Shown here piece by piece: positions 5,385 through 64,000 of a stretch of 64,000 nucleotides of DNA (its first letter is position 1; each line of letters opens with the position of its first letter). The notes under the pieces are model-generated. The model ran no database searches. It was not told where the DNA came from and was given only the letters and a program-made list of their open reading frames with translations. This DNA comes from a virus. Taxonomy: Duplodnaviria > Caudoviricetes. Where the stretch lies: positions 19,380 to 83,379 of IMG/VR virus record IMGVR_UViG_3300003375_000020, one strand, 5' to 3'. The translations under genes were made by a program, and so were the position numbers.

Positions 5385-7031
5385 ATGAGTAAAACACAAT
5401 TCATTAAAGGACAAGAATTAAAAGAAAAATTATTCGCAGGAATTGAAAAATTAAATACTGCAGTTAGCTCTACATTAGGACCAGGAGGTAGAACTGTTTT
5501 AATTAAAGATTCAAACGGAGAAATTAAAGCTACAAAAGATGGAGTTTCCGTTGCAAAATCATTTGGAGAGTTGGAAGATCCAATTGAAACTATTGGTGCG
5601 ACTTTAGTGAAACAAGTATCTATTAAATCTGCAGACGAAGCAGGAGATGGTACAACAACATCTACTTTATTAGCAACTAAAATTGTTGAAGAAGGATTAA
5701 AAAATATCCGTCAGGGTACTAATGCGGTTGAGATTAAATCAGGTATTGATGAAGCAGTAGAATTTATTATTAACGAAATTAAAAATAAAGCAGAAGACGT
5801 TTCATCTCAAGCACAAATTAAGCAAGTAGCAACTATTTCAGGAAACAATGATGAAGAAATTGGTAATTTAATTTCTACTGCGATTGAAAAAGTTGGTCGT
5901 GAAGGAGTTGTTACTATCGAAGAATCTAAAACTGGAGAAACTAGTTTGGAAGTCGTTGAAGGTATGCAATTTGATAGAGGATTTAAATCACCTTATTTTG
6001 TTACAAACAATACCGATATGACTGCTGGCTTAGAAAGTCCATATATTTTATTGTATGATGGAAGAATCTCTTCGGCGCAAGAATTATTACAAGTATTAAC
6101 TATTGCTAATGCTGAAAATAAATCTTTATTGATCATCTCAGAAGACATTGGAGACGAAGCTTTAGCAACTCTTATCGTTAATAAAATGAGAGGAATCGTT
6201 AAAGTAGCCGCAGTTAAAGCTCCTGATTTTGGACCAAGAAAAACATTAATTTTAGAAGATATAGCAATTTTAACAGGTGGTACAGTTATTTCTAAAGATA
6301 AAGGACACAAATTAGATAAATTAACAGCTGCTCAAATTTCAAGTTTTTTAGGTAATGCGAGAATGGCTACAATTTCTAAAGAAGAAACAACAATCGTAGA
6401 TGGTAAAGGTAGTGCAGATGCAATTGAACAGAGAGCTGAAGAAATTAAAGAGCAAATTGAAAAAGCAACCTCTTTCTATGAAAAAGAAAAATTACAAGAA
6501 AGACTTGGTAAATTAATTGGCGGGGTTGCAATCATTAATGTTGGAGGAAATTCAGACATTGAAATTAAAGAAAAGAAAGACAGAGTAGAAGATGCTCTAT
6601 ACGCAACTAAAGCAGCATTGGCCGACGGTATTGTTGTTGGAGGTGGTGTGGCTCTTTATAAAGCAGCTCAAAAATTAAAATCAACTGGATTATCTTTATC
6701 TTCTGAAATCGCCTACGGAATTGTAAAGAAAGCATGCGAAGCTCCATTTAAAACTATCTTAGCTAATACTGGAAAAGAAAATTGGTATGAAATTGCTCAA
6801 GAAGTAATGACATCGTCGAATCTTAACGCTACGTATGATGCAAAAGTTGGTAAAGTAGTAGATGCTATTGAGCACGGATTAATTGATCCGGCTAAAGTAG
6901 TAATTACTGCACTTAAAAATGCGTCTTCAGTTGCCGGAACAATTCTTACTACAGAATCGGTGATCTTTGAAAAGAAAGCAAAAGACGAAACTACCTCAGA
7001 TCCGATGATGGGTATGGGTGGAATGATGTAA
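5385..7031 (+). CDS. groEL: Group I chaperonin GroEL
   Basis: [48 protein letters not shown] and MMGMGGMM tail. Confidence 0.98.
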
Positions 7032-10662: not shown

Positions 10663-11055
10663 ATGGAAATTTTAATTATTATTGGATATTTCTTTTTTAC
10701 AACTTTTGCAATTTTTGGATTAATTAATTTTTTACATAATAGAAAAATAGACATGAATTTAACAAACGAATTTTACTCAATTAGAGAATGGGCACAAGAT
10801 AAAGGCATTTATGATAAAGGAGATGCAAAGACTCAATACATTAAATTATTAGAAGAAACAGGTGAATTGGCGAAAGCAATTCTAAAAGAAGACGAAGAAG
10901 AATTTGTAGACGCTATTGGTGATTGTGTGGTAGTACTTACCAATCTTGCTAAATTAAAAGGGTATAATATTGAAGATTGCATTAACTCTGCTTACGAAGT
11001 TATTGCTAAGAGAAAAGGAACCATGCAAAACGGAAGTTTTGTTAAAGAATCTTAA
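10663..11055 (+). CDS. MazG-like all-alpha NTP pyrophosphohydrolase
   Basis: KLLEETGELA...DAIGD..VVL motif; AY..I..RKG.M.NG.FVKE tail. Confidence 0.85.
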   Translation: MEILIIIGYFFFTTFAIFGLINFLHNRKIDMNLTNEFYSIREWAQDKGIYDKGDAKTQYIKLLEETGELAKAILKEDEEEFVDAIGDCVVVLTNLAKLKGYNIEDCINSAYEVIAKRKGTMQNGSFVKES

Positions 11056-16054: not shown

Positions 16055-16552
16055 GGGGATGCCAGGCATTTGATCTAGATGCGAATGGTAGTATCACATG
16101 CAAGACGAGAGAGCGTCAAAAAACTCTTGAAAAATAAACGCAAACAAAACTGCAAACTTCGACTTCGCAAACAACGTTATCAACATGGCATTTGCTAATG
16201 CTCCTGTTGCTTTAGCAGCTTAGTCTACGGGTTGGTAACTGACCTAGGAACATAATAGTTACAAATCGTGTGAAGACGAGGCGGACTTTGGCCCGTAATT
16301 TTAGAGCTTACACAGTAGTATGCCAATGCTACAAGTTCTTGGACTTAAACCAAGTGGTGGATTCAAAACTCGTATACCAATACGACCCGTACTAATCAGT
16401 TATTGAGCGAAGCATCGGAACAGGAACGATAAGATCACACGTAGCCTGATGATAGCAGATTAACTCTTGTCACTGTGTACAGTATGACTAAGCATGTAAG
16501 TACGGTATTATGATTACTTTTAGAGACGTCGGTTCGAATCCGACCATCTCCA
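16055..16552 (+). ncRNA. ssrA: tmRNA (one-piece, about 498 nt); tag ANKTANFDFANNVINMAFANAPVALAA at 16140-16223
   Basis: Acceptor GGGGATG/CATCTCC with G3.U wobble, A discriminator, T-arm GTCGG-TTCGAAT-CCGAC, AATAAAC-GCA resume context, tag ends ALAA-stop. Confidence 0.95.
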
Positions 16553-16598
16553 CTGTCACTTTTTTGTACCTTGAGCATATTTATAATAAACTATAGAT

Positions 16599-17849: not shown

Positions 17850-17923
17850 TCCCTCTTAGCTCAATTGGTAGATGTACGTGGCTTTTAACCATGGGGTTGT
17901 GAGTTCGAATCTCACAGGGGGCA
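17850..17923 (+). tRNA. tRNA-Lys(TTT)
   Basis: CGTGG-CTTTTAA-CCATG; GTGAG-TTCGAAT-CTCAC. Confidence 0.85.
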
Positions 17924-17944
17924 CATAAAAATAAAATAAATAGT

Positions 17945-18169
17945 ATGTCAATTTACGCAACAAATTACATAATTGATGAAGAAACACGTGAACCAAAACT
18001 TGTTAAACATTTAAATCAAACAAGAATTGATAGAGGTACCGCAAAAAGACCACCTGGAAAGTGGAATAAAAATGGTGCTAATCAAAAAGAAAGAAAACGT
18101 TGGAGTAAAGGAGATTCAAAAAAAGAATTTAAATTAGACAAAATGAAAAAAGACTTTGAAGGATTGTAA
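17945..18169 (+). CDS. Basic hypothetical protein
   Basis: ORF inside the tRNA array. Confidence 0.5.
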   Translation: MSIYATNYIIDEETREPKLVKHLNQTRIDRGTAKRPPGKWNKNGANQKERKRWSKGDSKKEFKLDKMKKDFEGL

Positions 18170-18188
18170 GGACTAAAACCTTACAACA

Positions 18189-18500
18189 ATGACAAACACA
18201 AGAGAATATCGTACAACAACAAACAGAAGTGTTTATAACAAACTGTATAAAGAATATAATGCTCACTGTTCTTACTGCAAATGGCATGGACCATCATCTG
18301 AAAATGATAGATATAAATGTTATTATATAAGAGAATGGAATAATAAAAAGAAAGCTAAATATCCTAACTGGAAATTAGTATCAAAAAATCAAAAACAGTG
18401 GATGAAAAAACCATTGATTTTTAAATCAAGTATTAATCCATACAGTCCTTGGACTTATTGGATTGATATTGAATGGCCTAGTAAAATTAGACCAAAATAG
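18189..18500 (+). CDS. Hypothetical protein (CSYC; NWKLVSKN.KQW)
   Basis: ORF inside the tRNA array. Confidence 0.55.
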   Translation: MTNTREYRTTTNRSVYNKLYKEYNAHCSYCKWHGPSSENDRYKCYYIREWNNKKKAKYPNWKLVSKNQKQWMKKPLIFKSSINPYSPWTYWIDIEWPSKIRPK

Positions 18501-18506
18501 AAAAAC

Positions 18507-18577
18507 GTCGAGTTGGTGCAATGGTAGCATACCTGATTCCAAACCAGTTGATGAGGGTTCGAATCCTACGGTGGGTG
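18507..18577 (+). tRNA. tRNA-Trp(CCA), degenerate (acceptor strands do not pair)
   Basis: D-arm GTGC-AATGGTA-GCAT, anticodon loop TTCCAAA, GGTTCGAATCC. Confidence 0.55.
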
Positions 18578-18583
18578 CAAAAT

Positions 18584-18655
18584 AGACTTGTAGTTTAACG
18601 GATAGAATGATTGGCTACGGACCAATTGGTGGGAGTTCGATTCTCTCCAAGTCTA
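18584..18655 (+). tRNA. tRNA-Arg(ACG)
   Basis: AGACTTG/CAAGTCT; ATTGG-CTACGGA-CCAAT. Confidence 0.92.
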
Positions 18656-18681
18656 CAATTAAAAAATTAAAAATTAAAGTT

Positions 18682-19224
18682 ATGAGAAAGAAAATTATTT
18701 TTATTGATGTTGATGGGCCATTGGCTTGGGCAACATGGTACGATGGTAAAGTGAAGATAAACGAAAATACTATGAATGAGTTTACAATACCTTACCCATT
18801 AGTAAAAGAGGATTGTGAAGCATTGCAAGAAATTTGTGACAAGACTAATGCAGAATTAGTATTATCATCAGATTGGAAGTTACACTTTACTCTTAGACAA
18901 ATGAGTGATACATTTATTGAGTTTGGTATTCATGCTCCATTGATTGATATCACAACACATATGAGTAGTAGAAAGCTGGGAATTTGGAATAAGATGAGTA
19001 ATCCATCCTTAGAGTTTGAAAGAGCACATCAGATTGTAAAATGGGTTAAAGATAATAAGATTAGTAACTGGATTGCAATTGATGATATGAAATTAAGTGC
19101 AGAGTTCAAATGGATGAAACATCGTATCCCAATGTGGAGGCATGTACAAGTTGATGGAGATTTTGGACGTGGTGGAAGATTGAGAGATAAGGTAGATGAA
19201 TGTATTAATAAACTAAACCGATAA
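18682..19224 (+). CDS. HAD-domain protein (RNA-repair-associated HAD type)
   Basis: FIDVDG, VLSSDW, WIAIDD; true start 18682 (AAAGTTATG), since the ORF-track start lies inside tRNA-Arg. Confidence 0.8.
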   Translation: MRKKIIFIDVDGPLAWATWYDGKVKINENTMNEFTIPYPLVKEDCEALQEICDKTNAELVLSSDWKLHFTLRQMSDTFIEFGIHAPLIDITTHMSSRKLGIWNKMSNPSLEFERAHQIVKWVKDNKISNWIAIDDMKLSAEFKWMKHRIPMWRHVQVDGDFGRGGRLRDKVDECINKLNR

Positions 19225-19297
19225 GGCGAGTTGTCCGAGTGGATAAAGGCACAGCACTGCAAACGCTGTTACGTGAGTTCAATTCTCACCTTAACCT
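19225..19297 (+). tRNA. tRNA-Cys(GCA), degenerate acceptor stem
   Basis: CAGC-A-CTGCAAA-C-GCTG; GTGAG-TTCAATT-CTCAC; U discriminator. Confidence 0.65.
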
Positions 19298-19326
19298 CTT
19301 TTGGATCTTTGACATATGGAATTTAT

Positions 19327-19402
19327 CGAGATGTGGACCAATTGGCTAGGTCGCTTCATTTGGGATGAAGACATCGTGCAAGTTCGACCCTTGTCATCTC
19401 GA
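19327..19402 (+). tRNA. tRNA-Pro(TGG)
   Basis: CGAGATG/CATCTCG; CTTCA-TTTGGGA-TGAAG. Confidence 0.92.
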
Positions 19403-19493
19403 CTAAAGCTAATTTAATTCTTTTATCCCTGCTTGGAGTAAAAGTATGAAATAAACATAGTGCTTTATAACATAAAAGATAGAATTAGTATTT

Positions 19494-19568
19494 GGGGAGT
19501 CATGTACCAAGGCTTGGCGATGCTGCTTTGCAAGCAGCGTGTGGACGGTTCGATACCGTTACTCTCCA
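19494..19568 (+). tRNA. tRNA-Ala(TGC)
   Basis: GGGGAGT/ACTCTCC with G3.U; GCTGC-TTTGCAA-GCAGC. Confidence 0.92.
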
Positions 19569-19649
19569 CTATAGGGTGTAATTATACCTACAACAAAGGG
19601 AAGTTTCAGAGATGGTTCCTAATCGCACTCTTTCAAATGCGATGGATAT

Positions 19650-19725
19650 GGGCGCTTCGCTTAGCTGGTTTTAAAGCGTCACTCTTACAAAGTGAAGATC
19701 ATCCGTTCGACTCGGATAGTGCCTA
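19650..19725 (+). tRNA. tRNA-Val(TAC)
   Basis: GGGCGCT/AGTGCCT; TCACT-CTTACAA-AGTGA. Confidence 0.92.
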
Positions 19726-19780
19726 CAAAGAGGACAAAATGTATAGTAGCCTCAAGGATGATATCTCCTACTATACTCAT

Positions 19781-19852
19781 GCAGCAGTAGCTCAAAGGAA
19801 GAGCGTCACATTGCCAATGTGAAGGTTGAGATTTCGAAATTCTTTTGCTGCT
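19781..19852 (+). tRNA. tRNA-Gly(GCC)
   Basis: GCAGCAG/TTGCTGC; TCACA-TTGCCAA-TGTGA. Confidence 0.92.
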
Positions 19853-19857
19853 CATAT

Positions 19858-19929
19858 TGCTTATTAGTATAACGGCTAGTACATTTGGTTTTGGTCCAAA
19901 TAGTTGGGGTTCGAATCCCTGATAAGCAT
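19858..19929 (+). tRNA. tRNA-Gln(TTG)
   Basis: TGCTTAT/ATAAGCA; TTTGG-TTTTGGT-CCAAA. Confidence 0.92.
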
Positions 19930-19934
19930 CATAA

Positions 19935-20016
19935 GGAGAGTCCTAAAGGAGTAGTTAGCTGTCTTGAAAACAGTGAAGAGGTAACACTTGTGAGGGTTCG
20001 AGTCCGTCACTCTCCG
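19935..20016 (+). tRNA. tRNA-Ser(TGA), atypical D-arm
   Basis: GGAGAGT/ACTCTCC; GCTGT-CTTGAAA-ACAGT; long variable arm. Confidence 0.8.
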
Positions 20017-20120
20017 CTAAAACATTCCGAAACCCAGGCACAAATTGTTGGTGGAGTATGATACGTAAAGTATCCCGAGACAGCAGGGGAAATAACGTTA
20101 AGAGGAATGTTTTTTAATAT

Positions 20121-20192
20121 GGGTCTTGAAGCTTTAAGGTGAAGTGCATGTTTGTGGCACATGAGAACTCGGTTCGATACCGTGCTAGACCC
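20121..20192 (+). tRNA. tRNA-His(GTG) with encoded G-1
   Basis: GGGTCT/AGACCC; CATGT-TTGTGGC-ACATG. Confidence 0.85.
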
Positions 20193-20275
20193 CGGCACCA
20201 TGATAAAACTTGGTACGTAACAAGTGGATAGAAGATTATGTCTAGGCTAGATAGGTTTTGCTTTTATCAAATTTT

Positions 20276-20360
20276 GGAAGTTTGCTCGAAAGGTAAGAGG
20301 CCAGTTTGCTAAACTGAAGCCTGGGTAAAACCAGAAGTGGCTCGGTACCACTAACTTCCG
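20276..20360 (+). tRNA. tRNA-Ser(GCT)
   Basis: GGAAGTT/AACTTCC; CAGT-TTGCTAA-ACTG; variable arm CTGG-GTAAAA-CCAG. Confidence 0.88.
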
Positions 20361-20432
20361 CTACTTTACACAAAGTGTATGGTGCTGGCAAGACTTAAAA
20401 ATGGTCTCGAAGACAATGCCTAAAGTTGTCCT

Positions 20433-20457
20433 CTCTACCTACGGGGTAGAGTTTTTT
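20433..20457 (+). terminator. Intrinsic terminator inside the tRNA array
   Basis: CTCTACC/GGTAGAG stem + T6 abutting tRNA-Ile. Confidence 0.7.
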
Positions 20458-20529
20458 GGAGATATAGTAGAATGGTAAGCACACATGACTGATACTCATG
20501 GAATCCAAGTTCGAGCCTTGGTATCTCCA
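20458..20529 (+). tRNA. tRNA-Ile(GAT)
   Basis: GGAGATA/TATCTCC; CATGA-CTGATAC-TCATG. Confidence 0.92.
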
Positions 20530-20539
20530 CACAATATAA

Positions 20540-20627
20540 GGACGGGTTGCTTTAGAGGCCGAAAAGTCTAGACTGTTAATCTAGTGTCGAAAGACCATCG
20601 TGAGTTCGAATCTCACCTCGTCCTCCA
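20540..20627 (+). tRNA. tRNA-Asn(GTT) with long variable arm and encoded CCA
   Basis: GGACGGG/CTCGTCC; CTAGA-CTGTTAA-TCTAG; GTC-GAAA-GAC variable arm. Confidence 0.85.
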
Positions 20628-20636
20628 CATTTATAA

Positions 20637-20718
20637 GCCAACGTCGCATAGTGGCAATTGCAGCAGACTGTAAATTTGTTCTCTTCGGAGTTCGAAGGTT
20701 CGAGTCCTTCCGGTGGCA
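20637..20718 (+). tRNA. tRNA-Tyr(GTA)
   Basis: GCCAACG/CGGTGGC; CTGTAAA loop; CTC-TTCG-GAG variable arm. Confidence 0.92.
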
Positions 20719-20730
20719 CATTAAAAATAT

Positions 20731-20768
20731 AGTTTTTATATACAGCTTAATGTAGTATATTTACTATA
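20731..20768 (+). promoter_or_regulatory. Putative internal promoter upstream of tRNA-Glu
   Basis: TTTTTATATAC...GTAGTATATTTAC resembles the other promoter elements. Confidence 0.5.
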
Positions 20769-20779
20769 TATTAAACAAT

Positions 20780-20851
20780 GCTCTTGTCATCTAATGGTTA
20801 GGATGTCAAATTTTCGATTTGAAAATGAGGGTTCGATTCCCTTCAAGAGTA
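20780..20851 (+). tRNA. tRNA-Glu(TTC)
   Basis: GCTCTTG/CAAGAGT; TCAAA-TTTTCGA-TTTGA. Confidence 0.92.
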
Positions 20852-20877
20852 CTTTTAAATCACTATACAATAAATAA

Positions 20878-20954
20878 CGAAAGTGGGGCTGCTAGGCTGT
20901 GGCCGCTGGATTGTCACTCCAGATATCAGGCGAGTTCGAATCTCGTACTTTCGG
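20878..20954 (+). tRNA. tRNA-Asp(GTC)
   Basis: CGAAAGT/ACTTTCG; CTGGA-TTGTCAC-TCCAG; G73. Confidence 0.88.
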
Positions 20955-21029
20955 CAGAATGTTACCTATTGGAATAACCAGCGCATGACGTGGTTGGCGT
21001 CCGACTTGGAGAGTAGGTAATTTTTCATT

Positions 21030-21101
21030 GATCCTTAGCTCATCAGGTTAGAGCAAGTGACTCATAATCATTAGGTGACCAGTTCGAGTCTGGTAGGATC
21101 A
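21030..21101 (+). tRNA. tRNA(CAT), Met or Ile2
   Basis: GATCCT/AGGATC; AGTGA-CTCATAA-TCATT. Confidence 0.88.
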
Positions 21102-21111
21102 ACTTTAATAT

Positions 21112-21181
21112 TGCGAGGAAGTGAATAGGTATCACGCTAGTCTCATAAGCTAGAGAACCGGATCAATACCGGCGATCGCAA
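21112..21181 (+). tRNA. tRNA(CAT), Met-type, partly degenerate
   Basis: TGCGA/TCGCA; CTAGT-CTCATAA-GCTAG; T-loop ATCAATA. Confidence 0.7.
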
Positions 21182-21404
21182 CTAAAATTTTGCTAGAAAG
21201 TAAATGAGTGATGTAGTTATAGAAGTGTAAAGACTATCGCATTACAGTAGTATCAGCTACGTTCATTTATTAGTATAGGTAGTTAGCTTGGGCGGTTGGC
21301 TGAAACGAAGTAATTCGTAGTCATATTAATATAAGGATAGGTTAAATTCCTATACGGTTCTTTCTAACTTACTACACTCTGATAAGTGTACAAAATTTTA
21401 AAAT

Positions 21405-21476
21405 CGCATTATGGTGAAAAGGCTATCACAGAGTCCTCATAAGGCTTTATTCCAATTTCGAGTATTGGTAATGCGA
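21405..21476 (+). tRNA. tRNA(CAT), Met-type
   Basis: CGCATTA/TAATGCG; GAGTC-CTCATAA-GGCTT. Confidence 0.85.
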
Positions 21477-21481
21477 CATTT

Positions 21482-21556
21482 GGTTGATTAGTTCAGCTGG
21501 TTTAAGAACACTTGCCTTGTAAGCATGAGACTTCGGTTCGAATCCGAAATTGACCT
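21482..21556 (+). tRNA. tRNA-Thr(TGT)
   Basis: GGTTGAT/ATTGACC; CTTGTAA loop. Confidence 0.9.
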
Positions 21557-21649
21557 CCCTAGTTATACCAGAGAAGTTAGGTAGTATAAACAGCCCTCCT
21601 GTCCACAGGTCACCGCGAGGAGGTTGGTTGGTGACGAGGCTTCTCAAAT

Positions 21650-21721
21650 GCAGATATCGTATAATGGCTATTACTCCATCCTTCCAAGTTGGAGATGTAG
21701 GTTCGATTCCTATTATCTGCT
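21650..21721 (+). tRNA. tRNA-Gly(TCC)
   Basis: GCAGATA/TATCTGC; CTTCCAA loop. Confidence 0.9.
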
Positions 21722-21941
21722 CACGAGCTGGTTATAAATAATCAACAGCTAGTTCCATCCTGAATGATGAGAAGCGGAGGTGATGCCCGTATGGATTCCT
21801 AGAGTGTAGTAGGGGAACACTTAAAGCTCATCAAGCTTGTACCTAATAAAGTCAAATTGATTATTCCTAACTTATTCGGTTTGGAACCGGGTAAGGACAG
21901 CTAAGACACCTGTGAGTTGGATAAATAAAGGTGTCACTTTT

Positions 21942-22017
21942 GGTCCTGTAGCATAACGGATTAATGCAACAATCTTCTAAATTGTTTTTTATAAGAGTTC
22001 GAATCTCTTCAGGACCT
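21942..22017 (+). tRNA. tRNA-Arg(TCT)
   Basis: GGTCCTG/CAGGACC; ACAAT-CTTCTAA-ATTGT. Confidence 0.92.
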
Positions 22018-22033
22018 CTAAAAATGAAAGAAT

Positions 22034-22237
22034 ATGATTTGGTTAATTGAACTGATTTGGTTATTAAGTATTGTATATGTCATTCATAGAATGATAGGAA
22101 GTAATAATAAAAAATCTTTAGATGGTGTTATAGGAAACACGCCAGGATTTGATGCAATAATATTTGTATGGGGAGCACCATTTTTTGCATTAGTTGATTT
22201 AGGTGCAAGATGGATTTCACACATGAAGCATAAATAA
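22034..22237 (+). CDS. Small membrane protein
   Basis: Two hydrophobic segments. Confidence 0.55.
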   Translation: MIWLIELIWLLSIVYVIHRMIGSNNKKSLDGVIGNTPGFDAIIFVWGAPFFALVDLGARWISHMKHK

Positions 22238-22241
22238 AAAT

Positions 22242-22270
22242 TGTTGAGTGGCGAAATTGGCAGACGCACC
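22242..22270 (+). pseudogene. Orphan 5' fragment of a Leu-type tRNA (D-arm only)
   Basis: TGGCGAAATTGGCAGACGCACC D-arm, then truncated just before the endonuclease promoter. Confidence 0.7.
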
Positions 22271-22305
22271 TTTTTGTTAATTTATAATATTTATCATAAA
22301 GAGGT

Positions 22306-22971
22306 ATGAGTGCTATAATTTATGAAACGGTAAATTTATTTAACAAAAAGAATAACATACTTCCTTATAGGTATATTGGAAGTGATCAACACAACAAACC
22401 TAGCTATTTAGGAAGCAGTAAAGAACTATGTGTAGATATAAAAAAACTAGGAGTAGATCAATTTGAAAAAAGAACTCTTTGTGAATTTAAAGAGGAGATT
22501 TCTAATATACTGCTAAGAAAAATAGAATCTCAAATTCAAACCTATTTAGGAGTAGCAAAAGATGAAACTTATTACAACAGGACAAATAGCTCTCTTAGAG
22601 GTTATGAGGAAACTGATGAACAGAGAGAAGCTAGAAAAGTTAACTTGTTAAAGAATAGAAAAATTTGGTGGGAATCTCTAACTGAAGAACAAAGGGAAGA
22701 AGAAAAAAAGAAAAGTGGAAAGTTTTTAGCCGCTTATAATAGATCAACTAAAGGAAAAACTTATGAGGAGATTTTTGGAGCAGAAAAAGCAAAGCTTAAA
22801 AAAGAGAAACACTCAGGAGGCAACAACAGTAATGCTAAAAAAGTATTACATAAGCCTTCAAATAAAATTTTTAATTCTGCTTTGGAGGCAATGAACTTTT
22901 TTAGCATAAAAAGATATGGAAGTTTGTATACAAGAATTAAAAAAGGTGAATTTGAATTTTTAAAAAGCTAA
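22306..22971 (+). mobile_element. Seg-like GIY-YIG homing endonuclease
   Basis: IIYETVNL...YRYIGSD....YLGS; ETYYN; GKTYEEIFG. Confidence 0.82.
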
Positions 22972-22975
22972 ACAC

Positions 22976-23130
22976 TGTTTCCTGGCGAAACGCTGAAAAG
23001 CTTGGCAGACGCGCTCCTCTTGTCTCGAGGGTGTGGAGCAACTAATAAAGATTGGATAATGGGTTGACCACAAAGCGCGCAATGTCCTCTTCCTAAAGTC
23101 CACGTCATGGTTCGAATCCATGGGAAACAG
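22976..23130 (+). ncRNA. Oversized (155 nt) tRNA-like RNA with GTC in the anticodon position
   Basis: TGTTTCC/GGAAACA acceptor, CATGG-TTCGAAT-CCATG T-arm, Leu-type D-arm with hairpin insert, about 70-nt variable region. Confidence 0.7.
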
Positions 23131-23209
23131 CAATAGTACGTTCGTAAGTAGCCGGTTTAAAACTATTCAAATAAGGAAACACGGCCTCCCTAAAAATGGG
23201 GGACATCAA

Positions 23210-23282
23210 GCACCTGTAGCCCAACGGGAGAGGCAATAGACTTAGGATCTATTCAGTGTCGGTTCGAATCCGACTAGGTGTA
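23210..23282 (+). tRNA. tRNA-Leu(TAG) with short variable loop
   Basis: GCACCTG/TAGGTGT; ATAGA-CTTAGGA-TCTAT. Confidence 0.88.
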
Positions 23283-23390
23283 CAAAAGAAACAGAAGTGT
23301 TTAATGAATGTAGTTTTCTCATTATGTTTCTTCCGGCCGTAGTTAGACTTCAAGATAAACTCATTCAAAGCTGGGTCGCTCCCAGTGCAT

Positions 23391-23465
23391 GCCTGTGTGA
23401 CGTAAATGGCATACCGTATCAGACTTAAAATCTGAGTCATGTGGGTTCGAATCCCATCACTGGTA
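23391..23465 (+). tRNA. tRNA-Leu(TAA) with short variable loop
   Basis: GCCTGTG/CACTGGT; TCAGA-CTTAAAA-TCTGA. Confidence 0.88.
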
Positions 23466-48518: not shown

Positions 48519-48646
48519 ATAACTGGCTGATCCCCAAAGCCTGACTCATAACTGATTGGTTACCAATAAAAAAGTTCTCCATTGAGAACCAACGAGTTAT
48601 GATCGCTCCCTGCTTACATTCTGGCGCAACTGATTGGTTTCCAATA
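48519..48646. promoter_or_regulatory. Cluster of IHF-consensus-like boxes (locus B)
   Basis: ATAACTGATTGGTTACCAATA, ATTGAGAACCAACGAGTTAT, AACTGATTGGTTTCCAATA. Confidence 0.65.
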
Positions 48647-48663
48647 GGCTTTTTTTCATTTGG

Positions 48664-48700
48664 ATTTTTTTATGTCAATATTGTGTCGTATATTTACTAT
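48664..48700 (+). promoter_or_regulatory. Putative strong early-type promoter
   Basis: TTTTTTTATGTCAATATTGTGTCGTATATTTAC, near-identical to 56183-56216. Confidence 0.7.
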
Positions 48701-48717
48701 ATTCAATTATCTTCCAC

Positions 48718-49038
48718 ATGAGCAAAAAACGCACAGATCGCAACCACATTATCTACGAAATCGTTAATACCGTTAACGGTAAACGTTACATAGGATTGAC
48801 GGTGGCACGCGGGAGAGCATACAAAAAAAGTGTATTAATTCGTTTTCACCAACACTGTATGCGAGCGTTAACTGAAAATAAAGATTGGGCGTTATACAAC
48901 GATATGCGTAAGTACGAACACGATGTGTACGACGTATTAATAGTAGATATCGTACGAGGTAAAGCTGAAGCACATCGCATAGAAACTGATCTTATTCATA
49001 GTTACGAATACAAATTAAATTCAACCATTAAAAAATAA
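48718..49038 (+). CDS. Small GIY-YIG nuclease-domain protein
   Basis: IIYEI.N..NGKRYIGLT; R...H; E...I; start at 48718. Confidence 0.75.
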   Translation: MSKKRTDRNHIIYEIVNTVNGKRYIGLTVARGRAYKKSVLIRFHQHCMRALTENKDWALYNDMRKYEHDVYDVLIVDIVRGKAEAHRIETDLIHSYEYKLNSTIKK

Positions 49039-49041
49039 GTT

Positions 49042-49503
49042 ATGACAAACTCAAGAAATTTTCAAGTAAACGATTTTATATCAATTAAGTACAATTACAA
49101 TTACGGTATGGGCTCAGGATCTCAAGGATCTGTGGAAATTACAGGTATTGTTAAAAGCATAGATCTATCAAAGATGACGTTTGAATTGTTAGCTACAAGT
49201 AAAAGAAAAGCTGAGAGCTATTATTTTTCTAGCATTAGTAGTATTACCATTCTTGAAAAACCTAAAGTGCCAGTAGAAAATGCACTAGCTGAAATAACAA
49301 AAATAGGTGAAGGTCGCTACGTAATTTCTTTTAAAGGTAAAGAATACGAAGCTGCAAAAATCGCCTACGCAGGTAGATTAAGAGTGTTTAATAGAGTTAA
49401 AGGCGCGAGAGGTATGAAACGTGGAAATATTATTTGTAACGAGTACATGTTTGGAATTAAAAGTCTTCGTAGAGACATAGAAATGGGTAAAAAAATTGCG
49501 TAA
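49042..49503 (+). CDS. Hypothetical early protein
   Basis: TAAGTTATG start. Confidence 0.6.
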   Translation: MTNSRNFQVNDFISIKYNYNYGMGSGSQGSVEITGIVKSIDLSKMTFELLATSKRKAESYYFSSISSITILEKPKVPVENALAEITKIGEGRYVISFKGKEYEAAKIAYAGRLRVFNRVKGARGMKRGNIICNEYMFGIKSLRRDIEMGKKIA

Positions 49504-49523
49504 TAAAATTAAAAATAAAAGTT

Positions 49524-49733
49524 ATGACAAATTCACAAATCGAATTATTTAGTAAAATTTTAGACACTAATTGGGAATTGAAAGAAGCAGTTGATAACGA
49601 AAAGCATTTTCAAGCTGTATCTTTAAAAGATCAATTAGATCAGTTCATTGAAGAATTAAAAGAATCTATGGGTGTAGAAGCATTTGATACATTCATGAGT
49701 AATGGTAGAAAAATGTTTGCTTCAAAAAACTAA
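49524..49733 (+). CDS. Hypothetical early protein
   Basis: AAAAGTTATG start. Confidence 0.6.
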   Translation: MTNSQIELFSKILDTNWELKEAVDNEKHFQAVSLKDQLDQFIEELKESMGVEAFDTFMSNGRKMFASKN

Positions 49734-49857
49734 AAAATAAAAATATGTTTACAGTCTATCTTATTATTTGTTTTGTATCGCTTGCGATATTAGCAGTGTG
49801 TTACATTAAAGCAGAACACCATCAAGACTGGGATTAATAAAATTAAAAATTAAAGTT

Positions 49858-50085
49858 ATGACAATACAAGTACCAAAATCAGTAAAAAGTTATTCAGAAT
49901 TGGCAGACGTAAGAAACGATGTCAAGTGTAAAATGATTGGTTCATTTTCAGGCCATCTAAAATCTATTCTATATTCAGGATTATTAGACAAAAATGAAAT
50001 TTCAAAAAAACGAACAGAACAGTTTTTAATCGAAATGGAAGAAATTTGGAACGCTCAGTACGAGATTAAAGTAGAGAACAATTAA
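49858..50085 (+). CDS. Hypothetical early protein
   Basis: AAAGTTATG start. Confidence 0.6.
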   Translation: MTIQVPKSVKSYSELADVRNDVKCKMIGSFSGHLKSILYSGLLDKNEISKKRTEQFLIEMEEIWNAQYEIKVENN

Positions 50086-50100
50086 CAGTTAATTGACATA

Positions 50101-50152
50101 GGTTAACTGATGAGACTTCAATAGTCGAAACCGCTATCATGCGGTATTAACC
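50101..50152 (+). ncRNA. Type I hammerhead ribozyme
   Basis: GGTTAA-CTGATGA-GACT(TCAAT)AGTC-GAAA-CCGC(TATCAT)GCGG-TA-TTAACC: full catalytic core, three stems, GUA cleavage triplet. Confidence 0.93.
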
Positions 50153-50167
50153 AATAAAATTAAAGTT

Positions 50168-51133
50168 ATGAATTTATTTCAATCAGTCAAGTCATTTATC
50201 AATAGTCGTGAAGTGAATAGTACGTTTACTACGAAAGAATTACACGATGCTATGAACGGTATTGAAAGTGTAACCGCATGGAAAAGACACGGTAACGAAT
50301 TCTACAGAACAAATACTTACAGATCTTATTTAAGACGTTTAGGTTTTGTTAATAGAATTAAGAACGGTCTTTGGATGGTGATATCACCGATACCAAATTG
50401 GTTCGATAGTGGCACTGCAAACTTTTTATTATTTCCAGCTTATAGATTTGAAAATGGAAAAACAATAAGACAGTCTGAATACAATGGAGAAACTAGAGCT
50501 CAGATCGAATTGAAATTAGAAAATCATTTTAAACATTATAAAAATATGAAACAAAAGTTGGAATTCAAAGTAGGCGACAAAGTAAAAATAGTTGGAAAGA
50601 CTGGTTACCACGGATTTGAAATGCAAGAAATTGTAGAAGTTGTTTTCGTTGGTGATGAAACTTTAGAGTGCGAAGGAAACGGTGGTGGAAAAACTACATT
50701 TCAACAAACAATAGATAAAAATGATGTGGTACTGTACTACGAAGTAAACATTCCAGAACCCTTTGAGAAAGAAGTACGACCATCTAGCGCCAAGGAATTG
50801 GCAAGAGAATTGGTAGGTGACGGTAAAACTCCTAACGTGTGGTTCGTTACTTATGGCGCTTACATAATGGTTAGAGAAGATTTTGATTGTAGCGACTACG
50901 AATTATTGGAAGGTTATTCAGAAAAAGATTCAGAAACTTTTGGACCTTTTTATTCTTACCAAGAAGCTTGCGATAAATACGATGATATAGATTTGGATCC
51001 ACGCGATGGCATTGGTCAAGTGTTTATTGAAGACAGATTAATTGGTACAGTTAAAGAGAAGTGCCTAGAAAAGGTAATTAAAGTAGATTATAGTTATAAC
51101 GAACACGATGATTCAAAATTTTATAAAAAATAA
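50168..51133 (+). CDS. Hypothetical multidomain early protein
   Basis: AAAGTTATG start; wHTH-like N-terminus, FKVGDKV SH3/KOW-like middle. Confidence 0.6.
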   Translation: MNLFQSVKSFINSREVNSTFTTKELHDAMNGIESVTAWKRHGNEFYRTNTYRSYLRRLGFVNRIKNGLWMVISPIPNWFDSGTANFLLFPAYRFENGKTIRQSEYNGETRAQIELKLENHFKHYKNMKQKLEFKVGDKVKIVGKTGYHGFEMQEIVEVVFVGDETLECEGNGGGKTTFQQTIDKNDVVLYYEVNIPEPFEKEVRPSSAKELARELVGDGKTPNVWFVTYGAYIMVREDFDCSDYELLEGYSEKDSETFGPFYSYQEACDKYDDIDLDPRDGIGQVFIEDRLIGTVKEKCLEKVIKVDYSYNEHDDSKFYKK

Positions 51134-51191
51134 ATTACACAAAATTAAGATCGAAAAAATAAAGTAATCATAAAAATTAAAAATTAAAGTT

Positions 51192-51665
51192 ATGGGATTA
51201 GACATGTATTTACACAAAAAAACTAACGTTAAGAACTACAGCTTTTATTCAGACGAAGAAACTACGTTAGTAACAGTTACAAGAAACGGAGAATCGGTAA
51301 AGTCTATCGATCCTTCAAAAGTATCAATGATAGAGCAAGAAGTTGGGTATTGGAGAAAATTCAATGCTCTTCATTTGTGGTTCGTTAATAATGTACAAGG
51401 CGGTAAAGACGATTGTGCAGAGTACTACGTTAAGAAAGATAAAATGCAAGAATTACTACAAGTATTAAAAGAAGTAAGTAACGATCATTCAAAAGCACCA
51501 GAATTATTGCCTATTGGAAATGGATTCTTTTTTGGAAATACAGATTATGATGAGTGGTATTTCAATGACGTTAATAGATCAATAATGATATTTGAAGACA
51601 TATTGAAGACTTCCATTAGTGAAGACGATTTGTATTCTTCTTATCACTATCAAGCAAGTTGGTAA
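51192..51665 (+). CDS. Conserved phage hypothetical protein (MGLDMYL...YWRK)
   Basis: MGLDMY, YWRK.N.LH.WF, GFFFG..DYD..Y, Y.ASW. Confidence 0.75.
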   Translation: MGLDMYLHKKTNVKNYSFYSDEETTLVTVTRNGESVKSIDPSKVSMIEQEVGYWRKFNALHLWFVNNVQGGKDDCAEYYVKKDKMQELLQVLKEVSNDHSKAPELLPIGNGFFFGNTDYDEWYFNDVNRSIMIFEDILKTSISEDDLYSSYHYQASW

Positions 51666-51694
51666 AATATTTTAATAAACTAATAAAAATAATT

Positions 51695-52015
51695 ATGCAA
51701 TTTAAATCTTTATACCCACCCATTTGCTTTACTAGTCCAAGTACGAATATCATCTACATTGTGGCAGGAGGAATTTATCAACAAGTGGACAAACTGTACG
51801 ATTGGTTAGAACTAAAAGAAATGTGGACTCCAATTGTGTACGATAAACCTTATCAGAAACCTGTGATAGTAGTAGAACCTATCAAGTATTTTGTTGAAGG
51901 TACTAAAGGCAACAAGTACGAAGTTGTAAATGATAATGGAGTGTGGACGTGTTCGTGTCCTGCACACGGATTTGGAAGAGGCAAAGATTGCAAACATATA
52001 AAATCTTTAAAATAA
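51695..52015 (+). CDS. SWIM zinc-finger protein
   Basis: WTCSCP.......CKHI. Confidence 0.7.
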   Translation: MQFKSLYPPICFTSPSTNIIYIVAGGIYQQVDKLYDWLELKEMWTPIVYDKPYQKPVIVVEPIKYFVEGTKGNKYEVVNDNGVWTCSCPAHGFGRGKDCKHIKSLK

Positions 52016-58227: not shown

Positions 58228-58890
58228 ATGAAGTTAAAACTAGAAAAAGGTCAAAAGTTGTGGTTCACTAGCGATACTCACTACAATCATTCTAACATTT
58301 GTAAAGCGACCACTGAGTGGACCAACGCAACTACTCTTAGAGATTTTGATAGTTTAGAGCGTATGAACCAAACTTTAGTTGATAATATCAATAAAGTAGT
58401 TGGTCAAAATGATATATTATTTCACTTAGGTGATTGGAGTTTCGGTGGATTTGAACAGATTGAAAAGTTTAGAAATAAGATTGTGTGTAAGAACGTTCAC
58501 ATTATTACCGGTAATCACGATCACCACATTGAAAGCAACAGAGAAGACTGTCGAATGCTATTTAGTTCTGTAAATAAGTACTTAGAACTAAGTGTTAAGT
58601 GGAATATTGGAATTCCTTTACTTAACGAACGATGTGAACAAAATTTTATATTAATGCATTTTCCTATTGCGAGCTGGAATAACATGTCAAGAGGATCAAT
58701 TCATTTACACGGTCACGTTCACTTAACTAAAAACCAACGTATAGGTAAAGGTAGAATGATGGACGTAGGAGTTGAAGGTAACGATTTTAGTCCCATCGAA
58801 TTAAGAGACGTGTTATCGTTATTACGTAAGCGTCCAATTAAATCTTTGTTAGAAGAAGATCATCACGAAATTATAGAACGGTATCAATAA
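58228..58890 (+). CDS. Calcineurin-like metallophosphoesterase
   Basis: SDTH, HLGD, GNHD, HGHVH. Confidence 0.92.
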   Translation: MKLKLEKGQKLWFTSDTHYNHSNICKATTEWTNATTLRDFDSLERMNQTLVDNINKVVGQNDILFHLGDWSFGGFEQIEKFRNKIVCKNVHIITGNHDHHIESNREDCRMLFSSVNKYLELSVKWNIGIPLLNERCEQNFILMHFPIASWNNMSRGSIHLHGHVHLTKNQRIGKGRMMDVGVEGNDFSPIELRDVLSLLRKRPIKSLLEEDHHEIIERYQ

Positions 58891-59115: not shown

Positions 59116-59529
59116 ATGAGCAAAGTATTAGTATTATTAAGAGGACTTCCCGGATCAGGAAAAACATCATTCGCAAATTTTATATGGTCTAGCTACGCTG
59201 TTTGTGAAGCTGATAAATTTTTCTATGATAAAGAAAGTAATTACAATTTCGATGCTACTAAATTAAAAGAAGCCCATGAATGGTGCAGAAATGAAGTAGA
59301 AACAAGGATGCAAGACAATCAAAACAATCCTCAATATTATCCGGAAATTGTGGTATCTAATACGTTTACCCAAGAATGGGAAATGGAAGCTTATTTTGAT
59401 TTAGCAAAGAAGTACGATTATAGAGTAGTATCATTAATTGTAGAGAACAGACATGGAAATAGTAATATTCATGGAGTACCAGATGATGTATTAAATAAAA
59501 TGAGAAATAGATTTTCAATAAAATTATAA
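59116..59529 (+). CDS. P-loop kinase (polynucleotide kinase/AAA_33-like)
   Basis: LRGLPGSGKT, EAD.FF, VVSNTF, N.HGVP...L..MR.RF. Confidence 0.85.
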   Translation: MSKVLVLLRGLPGSGKTSFANFIWSSYAVCEADKFFYDKESNYNFDATKLKEAHEWCRNEVETRMQDNQNNPQYYPEIVVSNTFTQEWEMEAYFDLAKKYDYRVVSLIVENRHGNSNIHGVPDDVLNKMRNRFSIKL

Positions 59530-60855: not shown

Positions 60856-61071
60856 ATGACAATGCAAGTTACAGATACTATGGTTGAAATTTTAAAAGAT
60901 CAGTTCTTAGGTAAAAAAATATCATTGTTAGATTCTAAAGGAAAAAAATGGGTGGGAAAATGTGAATTCATTGGTCCCAACCCATTCATTCCAAGTTGGG
61001 GGTTACAAGTAACTATTGGAAGAATGCCTATTACTAATGTGCAAATTAAGTCAATTAAAATAGAAGACTAA
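60856..61071 (+). CDS. Hypothetical protein
   Basis: AAGTTATG start. Confidence 0.55.
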   Translation: MTMQVTDTMVEILKDQFLGKKISLLDSKGKKWVGKCEFIGPNPFIPSWGLQVTIGRMPITNVQIKSIKIED

Positions 61072-62231
61072 TGAAAAATGAAAATAGTGTTTGCTTTATC
61101 GGAGTTATTAAAGAAGTGATACAAATTCCAGGAGCAGATAATATAGAACAAGCATTCATAGGTGGATGGTCTTGTATAATTAAAAAAGGTTCAAGCACAA
61201 AAGGAGATCACGTTGTTGTTGCTACAACAGATGCAGTAATTCCTGAAGCTTTAGCTGAATCTTTAAATGTTACTAACTATCTACGTAAAGGTAATAGAGT
61301 ACGTACAGTTAAATTGAAAGGTGTATACAGTGAATGCTTGATCATGGATTTAGATAGCGTTCCTCAAATGAAAAAGCAATACGCTACAGGAATTGGTTAT
61401 TATTGGGACGAGGGAGAAGATCTAATGGAGTTATTAGGAATTTATAAATTTGAACCTCCAGTAAAAACAATTCAATTATCAGGTGGTAGAAAAATTAGGT
61501 ATTCTGATAACCCAAATTTTCACATTTATTATAAGTTTCCAAACATTAAAAATGTGGAAGGTATTTTTAAAGAGGACGAAGATGAGGTTGAAATTACCAG
61601 AAAGATTCACGGTACTAATGCTAGATATGGAATTGTAAAGAAAAAGAATCTATCATTTTGGGACAAGATTCTAAAATTTTTAGGATTCGCTGACAAATGG
61701 ATTGAGTACGAGTTTTGTGTTGGTTCTCATAATGTAGAAAAAGGATCTGATTCTCAAGGATTTTATGATACAAATGTATGGAGAGATATTGATGCTAATT
61801 ATCGAATTAAAAAAAGGTTGTGGGATTATGTAAAGCATGATCATACACCGTCTTCCATTGGTTCTGGTTTTGTATTATACGGTGAGATCTACGGAGCTGG
61901 GATACAACAAAATTATGATTATGGTTTAAATGGAATAATGTTTAAGGGATTCGATATAACTATTAATGGAAAATACCAATCTACAGAGGATACTCATTAC
62001 ATAATCTCTGAAGAATTGGGATTATCATACGTAGATATTTTATTTATAGGACCGTGGAGAAAATCAGTACAAGACTTTTACGCGATGAATCAATTCATTC
62101 CAAATACTAAAATTCCAGAGGAGGGTATAGTAATTAAACACCTGTCAGGCGGTAGAAGTAAAGTAGCAAAAGTAATTAACCCAGATTATCTCATCTATGC
62201 AGAAAAGAAAGACGTAGGAGATTCACACTAA
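61071..62231 (+). CDS. RNA ligase (Rnl2/DRB0094-like) with N-terminal OB domain
   Basis: IPGADNIE, R.RT.KL.G..S, KIHGTN (motif I), GEIYG, F..FDI, EEG.V.K, K.INP.YL. Confidence 0.9.
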   Translation: MKNENSVCFIGVIKEVIQIPGADNIEQAFIGGWSCIIKKGSSTKGDHVVVATTDAVIPEALAESLNVTNYLRKGNRVRTVKLKGVYSECLIMDLDSVPQMKKQYATGIGYYWDEGEDLMELLGIYKFEPPVKTIQLSGGRKIRYSDNPNFHIYYKFPNIKNVEGIFKEDEDEVEITRKIHGTNARYGIVKKKNLSFWDKILKFLGFADKWIEYEFCVGSHNVEKGSDSQGFYDTNVWRDIDANYRIKKRLWDYVKHDHTPSSIGSGFVLYGEIYGAGIQQNYDYGLNGIMFKGFDITINGKYQSTEDTHYIISEELGLSYVDILFIGPWRKSVQDFYAMNQFIPNTKIPEEGIVIKHLSGGRSKVAKVINPDYLIYAEKKDVGDSH

Positions 62232-63351: not shown

Positions 63352-64000
63352 ATGAAAACAGTAATTATCTCTGACGTACACGGTAGATCTGTATGGAAAT
63401 TAATCACTCACATGGAAAATGCAGATAGAGTTATTTTCTTAGGTGATTATTTTGATTCATACGAAATTTCAGCAGCCGAACAAATATACAATTTTCAAGA
63501 GATTATTGATTTTAAAGAAACTTCGTTTACAAATTCAGGAAAATCTGATCAACATAAAACGAAAGTTATCTTATTAATCGGTAATCATGATTATGGGTAT
63601 TTTAGTGGAATCGATGGCACTAAAACTTCAGGTTATCAAATTAACTTAGCTCCAAGCATTAATATTGTATTAGAAGAGAATAAGCATCACATGCAAATGG
63701 CTTATCAATTTGATAAGTTCTTATTCACACACGCAGGTGTCAGTGAAGTGTTTATGAACGACATATTTGGAATAAATGAATGGAAGATTGAGAATCTTGT
63801 ATCAGATCTTAACGATTTGTTTAAGTACAAACCCCAATCATTTATGTTTAATACGGCAGACAGGATGGGTTTTGGAGATTATGAACATCAATCACCAATT
63901 TGGATTAGACCAAGAAGTTTAATGAAAGCTGGTAAATTGGACAGAGAATTAAAGAAGCATGTTATTCAAATTGTTGGACATACAAAACAAGACCAAATAG
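63352..64000 (+). CDS. Second metallophosphoesterase (3' truncated by window edge)
   Basis: SDVHG, FLGDYFD, GNHD, FTHAG, VGHT. Confidence 0.88.
   Translation, partial: MKTVIISDVHGRSVWKLITHMENADRVIFLGDYFDSYEISAAEQIYNFQEIIDFKETSFTNSGKSDQHKTKVILLIGNHDYGYFSGIDGTKTSGYQINLAPSINIVLEENKHHMQMAYQFDKFLFTHAGVSEVFMNDIFGINEWKIENLVSDLNDLFKYKPQSFMFNTADRMGFGDYEHQSPIWIRPRSLMKAGKLDRELKKHVIQIVGHTKQDQI

Follow-up and report, generated by a model that had tools for sequence, protein, structure and literature searches.

A type I hammerhead ribozyme of a large phage family precedes a start codon in a viral contig and probably trims a polycistronic RNA to a short A-rich leader

Sequence comparison confirms a genuine type I hammerhead ribozyme, belonging to a large phage family, at positions 50101–50152 of the viral DNA analyzed here. 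The window, meaning the whole 64-kb stretch under analysis, spans bases 19380–83379 of an 83-kb IMG/VR viral record that is estimated to be ~53% complete. Its G+C content is 31%, and its + strand carries every open reading frame (ORF) of at least 250 amino acids. The hammerhead fills the short spacer between two ORFs on that strand (Table 1) and is very probably active. We consider it highly likely that the element cuts a polycistronic transcript and leaves the downstream gene with a short A-rich leader. This reading rests on the architecture of the site, on the covariation and placement of the hammerhead family to which it belongs, and on its conservation at orthologous loci.

The sequence at 50101–50152 has the sequence features expected of the hammerhead class: the core nucleotides, three helices, and a nucleotide 17 that is not G, as the NUH rule demands. 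Any base is tolerated at core position N7 of hammerheads, and the scissile bond is placed by the hammerhead numbering rule. The first-pass annotation had read every core nucleotide and three stems at this site and had predicted cleavage after A50146, which is 21 nt upstream of the ATG at 50168. Reading the sequence again confirmed the nucleotides and stems, with their coordinates and counts, and the cleavage position and its distance to the start codon are likewise correct. Folded alone, the 52-mer is predicted to adopt exactly this structure at its minimum free energy (MFE; −13.9 kcal/mol, z = −2.7).

Table 1. Predicted and annotated features at the hammerhead site and in the RNA-repair region (coordinates are positions in the window).
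Feature	Position	Strand	Sequence, pairing or detail	Basis
Upstream ORF, 75 aa, without family match	49858–50085	+	Stop TAA at 50083–50085, 15 nt 5' of stem I	
Competitor strand	50086–50094	+	CAGUUAAUU; 9 bp with 50101–50109 (stem I 5' strand and C3–G5)	Predicted folding
Conserved unpaired A 5' of stem I	50100	+		A in 116/117 family members
Complete type I hammerhead ribozyme	50101–50152	+	Stem I open; loops close stems II and III	Sequence, fold, descriptor (6/4/5 bp), model R1
Stem I 5' strand	50101–50106	+	GGUUAA; 6 bp with 50147–50152 (UUAACC)	Sequence; covariation
Core box C3–A9	50107–50113	+	CUGAUGA	Sequence; family invariance except position 7
Stem II hairpin	50114–50126	+	GACU/AGUC, 4 bp, G10.1–C11.1 closing, loop UCAAU	G50114–U50117 with A50123–C50126
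Core G12, A13, A14	50127–50129	+		Invariant in 117/117 family members
Stem III hairpin	50130–50145	+	ACCGC/GCGGU, 5 bp, A15.1–U16.1 basal, loop UAUCAU	A50130–C50134 with G50141–U50145
Predicted scissile bond	50146–50147	+	A17 (50146) / U1.1 (50147), triplet GUA	Hammerhead numbering rule
Predicted post-cleavage downstream leader, 21 nt	50147–50167	+	UUAACC and A-rich tract	Sequence
Downstream ORF, 321 aa	50168–51133	+	ATG at 50168	
Metallophos (calcineurin-like phosphoesterase)	58228–58890			
AAA_33 kinase-like protein	59116–59529			
RNA ligase with PHA02142 OB-fold	61071–62231			
Metallophos (calcineurin-like phosphoesterase)	63352–63999			

The window contains a single occurrence of the half-motif CTGATGAG..CGAAA, where 0.05 would be expected, and the 50101–50152 site is the sole match of the full type I descriptor. 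In 400 Markov-simulated windows, the descriptor was matched at a rate of 0.0025 sites per 64 kb, counting both strands, and no simulated match had the 6/4/5-bp quality of the actual site. A rate of 0.0025 per window still predicts hundreds of chance matches over ~250,000 windows, and for this reason evidence independent of the descriptor is decisive. A covariance model (R1) trained on 17 viral hammerheads from outside the phage lineage of the window gave the site 65.8 bits (E = 3.4e-14) and matched nowhere else in the window. Nor did R1 find a second hammerhead copy elsewhere in the contig (remaining 19 kb; L124). For other ribozyme classes, Rfam searches (E ≤ 0.01) came up empty both across the remainder of the contig and at the corresponding site in relatives without the hammerhead.

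We scanned IMG/VR for CTGATGAGACTT followed by 1–12 bases and CGAAAC and recovered at least 119 loci. Approximately 90 among the matches listed form a full type I hammerhead with a stem I of exactly 6 bp, the sequence of which is highly varied. Over ~0.94 Mb of fetched viral loci, R1 identified 179 copies. The family alignment (A3) comprises 117 distinct sequences, in which 99.9% of the cells in paired columns are standard pairs. Double compensatory changes were found in 14 of the 15 pairs, the exception being the invariant A15.1–U16.1, and the covariation score of the alignment was 0.816, compared to 0.15 for shuffled alignments and 0.05–0.09 for slid partners. All six pairs of stem I covary and are paired in every sequence; the four pairs of stem II also covary, as do four pairs of stem III besides the invariant one. 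Furthermore, the catalytic nucleotides C3, U4, G5, A6, G8 and A9 are invariant in the 117 members, and N7 is the only core position that varies. Position 17 is most often C (103/117), with A, as in the window copy, in the other 14 and G in none.

Sequence conservation in the family extends beyond the catalytic core. Loop II keeps five nucleotides in the pattern U-N-A-A-U, UCAAU being the commonest, and the two columns 3' of stem I hold A in 109 and 84 of the 117 sequences. The resulting family signature consists of an unpaired A before stem I, a G–C pair at the open end of the stem, two A residues after it, and the loop UNAAU. The window copy carries the entire signature (A50100, G50101–C50152, A50153, A50154, and loop UCAAU). 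These conserved elements, namely the flanking A residues with the G–C end of stem I on one side and loop II on the other, probably form a tertiary contact between stems I and II.

Members of the family occur as single copies or in same-strand arrays. For example, nine copies are found in L123 (2804–6445), eight in L044 (6748–12071), and six in L029 (1254–2959), spaced by ~250–2000 nt with one hammerhead per gene junction. Single-copy members include the window contig and the complete genome of Flavobacterium phage vB_FspP_elemoA_7-9A. The latter, grown on Flavobacterium sp. BAL314, is a cultured example; its hammerhead (56.2 bits; MT497017 17286–17351, minus strand) is flanked by small genes in an otherwise + strand run. 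The host of the window contig is probably also a bacterium of the Flavobacterium type. In the elemoA genome, the hammerhead underlies a 35-aa antisense ORF called as a "hypothetical protein" (L125 5968–6075; MT497017.1 17275–17382), which is probably an annotation artefact. We also observed mixed hammerhead topologies in one operon of L025, which holds four type I copies and, on the − strand (10797–10851), a match to the type III hammerhead that falls just below the Rfam threshold (35.6 vs 48.5 bits).

This large phage family has been missed by the curated thresholds of Rfam. The Rfam Hammerhead search, which the first-pass annotation had put forward as a check, returned no match at gathering thresholds. 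Indeed, the RF00163 model (clan CL00010; cut-off, 34 bits) does not match the window copy even at E ≤ 10, and other family members score 26–32.6 bits, below its cut-off. Like the type I hammerheads of RF00163, the window copy has the core, the three-stem junction, an open stem I and a triplet that obeys the NUH rule, and a contact between loop II and stem I is expected. Unlike them, the phage family keeps stem I at 6 bp with a G–C end, has conserved A residues on the flanks of this stem, and carries a 5-nt loop II of sequence UNAAU. The best Rfam match of the window copy is RAGATH-1-hammerhead (RF03152), at 23.2 bits versus a cut-off of 56.3. The two share the string CUGAUGAGACUU...CGAAAC and a hairpin just upstream, but stem II has its full 4 bp in the window copy and a single pair in the RAGATH-1 model. 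We rejected RAGATH-1 membership on the low bit score and on the deletion of the upstream hairpin (50080–50094) in the orthologous locus L002-4. True RAGATH-1-like sequences, in which GACTT and CGAAAC are 2 nt apart, make up a group of their own among the IMG/VR matches. Among the matches listed are 20 near-identical viral loci (L007, L011, L014, L021, and 16 more) with the arrangement CTGATGAGACTT-TC-CGAAAC, half of them from sample 3300045988. In these loci 2 nt replace stem II, and they are distinct from the phage family with the 6-bp stem I.

The placement of the family relative to genes is consistent with a role at the 5' end of messages. We computed placement statistics for 130 distinct sites, taking as ATG-ORFs those of at least 40 codons. 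The median distance from the cleavage site to the ATG is 27 nt, and an ATG-ORF starts no more than 40 nt from the cleavage site in 65% of the sites compared to 22% of random positions. The leader lengths have a sharp start at 19 nt, with almost none shorter, and mostly fall between 19 and 32 nt. The leaders are 55% A, and the upstream stop codon lies a median of 4 nt before stem I. The window copy is typical of the family in both its distance from cut to ATG (21 nt) and from stop codon to stem I (15 nt). This family-wide placement lends support to the proposal in the first-pass annotation that the hammerhead splits a polycistron and leaves little more than an A-rich initiation region.

We propose that the hammerhead is transcribed within a polycistronic + strand RNA, in which the three-stem junction would fold and loop II (UNAAU) would probably dock on the A, G–C and AA end of stem I. 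The ribozyme would then cut between A50146 and U50147. The upstream RNA, carrying ORF 49858–50085, would be left with a compact 3' end made of stems II and III and terminating in a 2',3'-cyclic phosphate. Stem I, which is AU-rich and weak, would subsequently melt, and the downstream RNA would begin with a 5'-OH and 21 nt of unstructured, A-rich leader upstream of the ATG at 50168, with barely enough room for a ribosome. The reaction likely serves to uncouple the two cistrons and provide the downstream gene with a defined, structure-free landing site for ribosomes. We infer that cleavage occurs in vivo and may influence the stability or translation of the products. The first-pass annotation had proposed that the 5'-OH would make the mRNA resistant to 5'-monophosphate-dependent decay. 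A 5'-OH spares RNA from RNase E-type sensing of 5'-monophosphates, whereas in Bacillus the 5'-OH product of glmS is a preferred substrate of RNase J1. Hence, the direction of any effect on stability would depend on the host.

Hammerheads in phage operons have been known since 2011, and the window copy is a solid but ordinary example of them. Phage and prophage hammerheads are intergenic, occur in clusters, and cleave polycistronic transcripts (Perreault et al., 2011, PMC3088659). In the haloviruses HF1 and HF2, for example, a hammerhead is located 13 nt before the start codon of an early helicase, and a mapped 5' end lies no more than 3 nt from the cleavage site (PMC3088659). Like those hammerheads, the window copy sits between same-strand genes in a putative phage polycistron, is predicted to cut shortly before a start codon, and has a proposed role in mRNA processing. 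Unlike the tandem sets, it stands alone in its 83-kb contig. It also differs from the HF1/HF2 variant in having a canonical core, and its probable host is a Flavobacterium-type bacterium rather than an archaeon. A parallel can also be drawn with RiboJ, an engineered insulator made from a satellite RNA hammerhead, which adds a hairpin that exposes the ribosome-binding site. As with RiboJ, a hammerhead in the 5' leader would remove the upstream RNA and yield a constant short leader for the downstream gene; unlike RiboJ, the window element is natural and would leave an A-rich, unstructured leader.

The function of hammerheads encoded in bacterial and phage genomes was still considered unproven in a 2019 review (PMC6765202), and the window copy alone adds little to this question. 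The rules that emerge from the family, namely the same-strand intergenic placement, the minimum of ~19 nt, the A-rich leaders and the A residues flanking stem I, are useful leads and fit ribozymes that tailor 5' leaders for translation. As the family is present in a culturable Flavobacterium phage, the leader-tailoring idea is testable.

The first-pass annotation had also described the hammerhead as perfect. The motif is complete; however, stem I is predicted to lose out to a competing hairpin that begins immediately upstream. Folding of positions 50040–50200 yields, as both the MFE and the centroid structure, a 9-bp hairpin that excludes the active hammerhead fold. In a fixed comparison, the hairpin (−19.8 kcal/mol) is better than the hammerhead (−15.4 kcal/mol) by 4.4 kcal/mol. 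Because the predicted hairpin sequesters the 5' strand of stem I and nucleotides C3–G5, cleavage may be slow or partial. A refinement of the main reading is that the ribozyme is gated: the hairpin would form first during transcription, and cleavage would await its opening. The candidate opener is the ribosome that finishes the upstream ORF, whose stop codon (50083–50085) abuts the hairpin, and processing would thus be coupled to upstream translation. Several features of the orthologous loci are consistent with gating. A competitor is the MFE structure in all five orthologues (ddG of 0.3–7.2 kcal/mol), and in L002 and L126 it takes a 12-bp form in a different register, in which CUGAUGA is covered entirely (ddG of ~7 kcal/mol, in the top 2–3% of the family). 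Each of the three substitutions observed in the 9-nt strand preserves pairing in one of the two registers, and the hairpin loop changes in L133. Furthermore, the upstream ORF of L002 extends across the hairpin's 5' strand and ends close to the hairpin tip.

Other observations argue against gating. The competing hairpin is not a family trait, as the upstream sequences match their own stem I no better, by complementarity, than they match the stem I of other members (cognate vs non-cognate, p = 0.84, no excess). The energetic penalty is also small: 2.3 kcal/mol for the window copy when folded with 24 nt of context, which ranks at the family's 78th percentile, and 0.3–1.1 kcal/mol in L132 and L133, which tertiary contacts could outweigh. 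In addition, the ribozyme on its own already constrains the hairpin's 3' strand, the orthologues do not count as independent cases, and a local hairpin could reform once the ribosome is released. Gating is thus unlikely in our judgment, and slightly more doubtful still is its strict form, a lineage-specific translation-gated switch that would free the downstream leader only after the upstream gene has been translated to its end. If true, it would be a natural translation-gated self-cleaving ribozyme. Since the hairpin is not family-wide and the penalty of the window copy is modest, we regard it as a reservation about how efficiently the site cleaves and as a lead of low probability toward gating.

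Comparisons among relatives revealed that the hammerhead is kept at some orthologous loci and missing from others. The 321-aa downstream protein has 37 homologues in metagenomes. It has no Pfam or PHROG family, the names given to its homologues conflict between sources, and GenBank phages have no DNA similarity to positions 49000–52000 of the window. The hammerhead is present in L002-4, where the downstream protein is 96% identical and the element differs from the window copy in loop III; in L132 (88%; loops II and III differ); in L133 (77%; loop III differs); and in L126 (59%; loop II differs and position 17 is C). These orthologous hammerheads occupy the same site, and the coding flanks diverge far more than the element, in which all changes relative to the window copy are confined to the loops and position 17 (A to C). 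The conservation of the element while its coding flanks diverge indicates purifying selection where it is present. A module of ~80 nt that includes the hammerhead is absent from L131 (1490–1503; downstream protein 67%) and L134 (253–264; 68%), which have 3 and 10 nt between the genes, respectively. More distant relatives (L128–L130, 43%) have no hammerhead match within the 8–9 kb fetched. Judging from these loci, the hammerhead is gained or lost as a module.

The abutting genes of L131 and L134, which do without the hammerhead, indicate that the ribozyme is dispensable for expression of the downstream gene. A rival reading is that of a passenger element, in which the ~80-nt module would be gained and lost sporadically and would cleave without benefiting the expression of these genes. 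The alternation of presence (L126, L132, and L133) and absence (L131 and L134) in close relatives is in line with such a passenger, as are the near-identical stem I and stem II sequences common to otherwise unrelated contigs. However, a passenger sits poorly with the strong conservation of the element relative to the diverging coding sequence that flanks it. It is also at odds with the sharp minimum of ~19 nt in leader length and the strict same-strand intergenic placement, which together point to selection tied to translation of the downstream gene. We therefore regard a passenger as improbable and favor a ribozyme that cuts the polycistron to leave the short A-rich leader.

The RNA ends that such a cut would generate had been linked in the first-pass annotation to RNA-repair enzymes encoded at 58–64 kb. 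The genes are real (Table 1), but the link is unsupported, as the cassette and the hammerhead separate in both directions. Kinases, phosphoesterases, and RNA ligases chemically act on exactly 5'-OH and 2',3'-cyclic-phosphate ends, and the cassette is on the same contig as the hammerhead, as would be expected if these ends were meant for the phage enzymes. Yet L129 and L130 carry a syntenic cassette (Metallophos, AAA_33, and an RNA ligase of the T4 Rnl1 type) at a distance of 2–3 kb from the orthologous gene, and the 8–9 kb examined contain no hammerhead. Conversely, the RNA_ligase domain is absent from five hammerhead-bearing records, among them the complete genome of a Flavobacterium phage and a contig of 100% completeness that carries eight hammerheads. 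Re-ligation would, moreover, reverse the cleavage. With ~20 tRNAs and a tmRNA in the window, the ordinary reading of the cassette is tRNA repair, and coupling to the hammerhead is very improbable. The phage-encoded tmRNA (70.7 bits) and the tRNA genes that follow it are all on the + strand (16055–16555 and 17850–23465 of the window).

That 50101–50152 is a chance resemblance or a signal other than a ribozyme, such as a promoter, a terminator or a DNA palindrome, could be argued from the chance rate of the loose descriptor over many windows and a TTGACA hexamer at 50093–50098, but this reading is effectively refuted by the R1 score, the covariation of the family and the conservation at orthologous loci. 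The hexamer was considered as a sigma-70 promoter and rejected: it lacks a usable −10 box, the promoter scan does not call the site, and promoter-like sites are not enriched. An intrinsic terminator was also rejected: the site has none, and no T run follows stem III. Promoters of the Bacteroidetes type (TTTG..TAnnTTTG) number 5 in the window against 5.5 expected, with none near the hammerhead. As neither the sigma-70-type nor the Bacteroidetes-type pattern stands out, the earlier description of the downstream gene as "early" is not demonstrated.

Other genes of the window provide additional context for the contig. Positions 5385–7031 encode a GroEL-type chaperonin of the phage (PHROG 5725, E = 6e-148) and positions 1347–3650 a DNA polymerase. 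Glycosyltransferases and an aminotransferase are encoded in the region between 29 and 45 kb. A 134-aa ORF located 1 kb upstream of the hammerhead (48634–49038) has a weak, sub-threshold match to the GIY-YIG nuclease domain (17.7 vs 22.6 bits).
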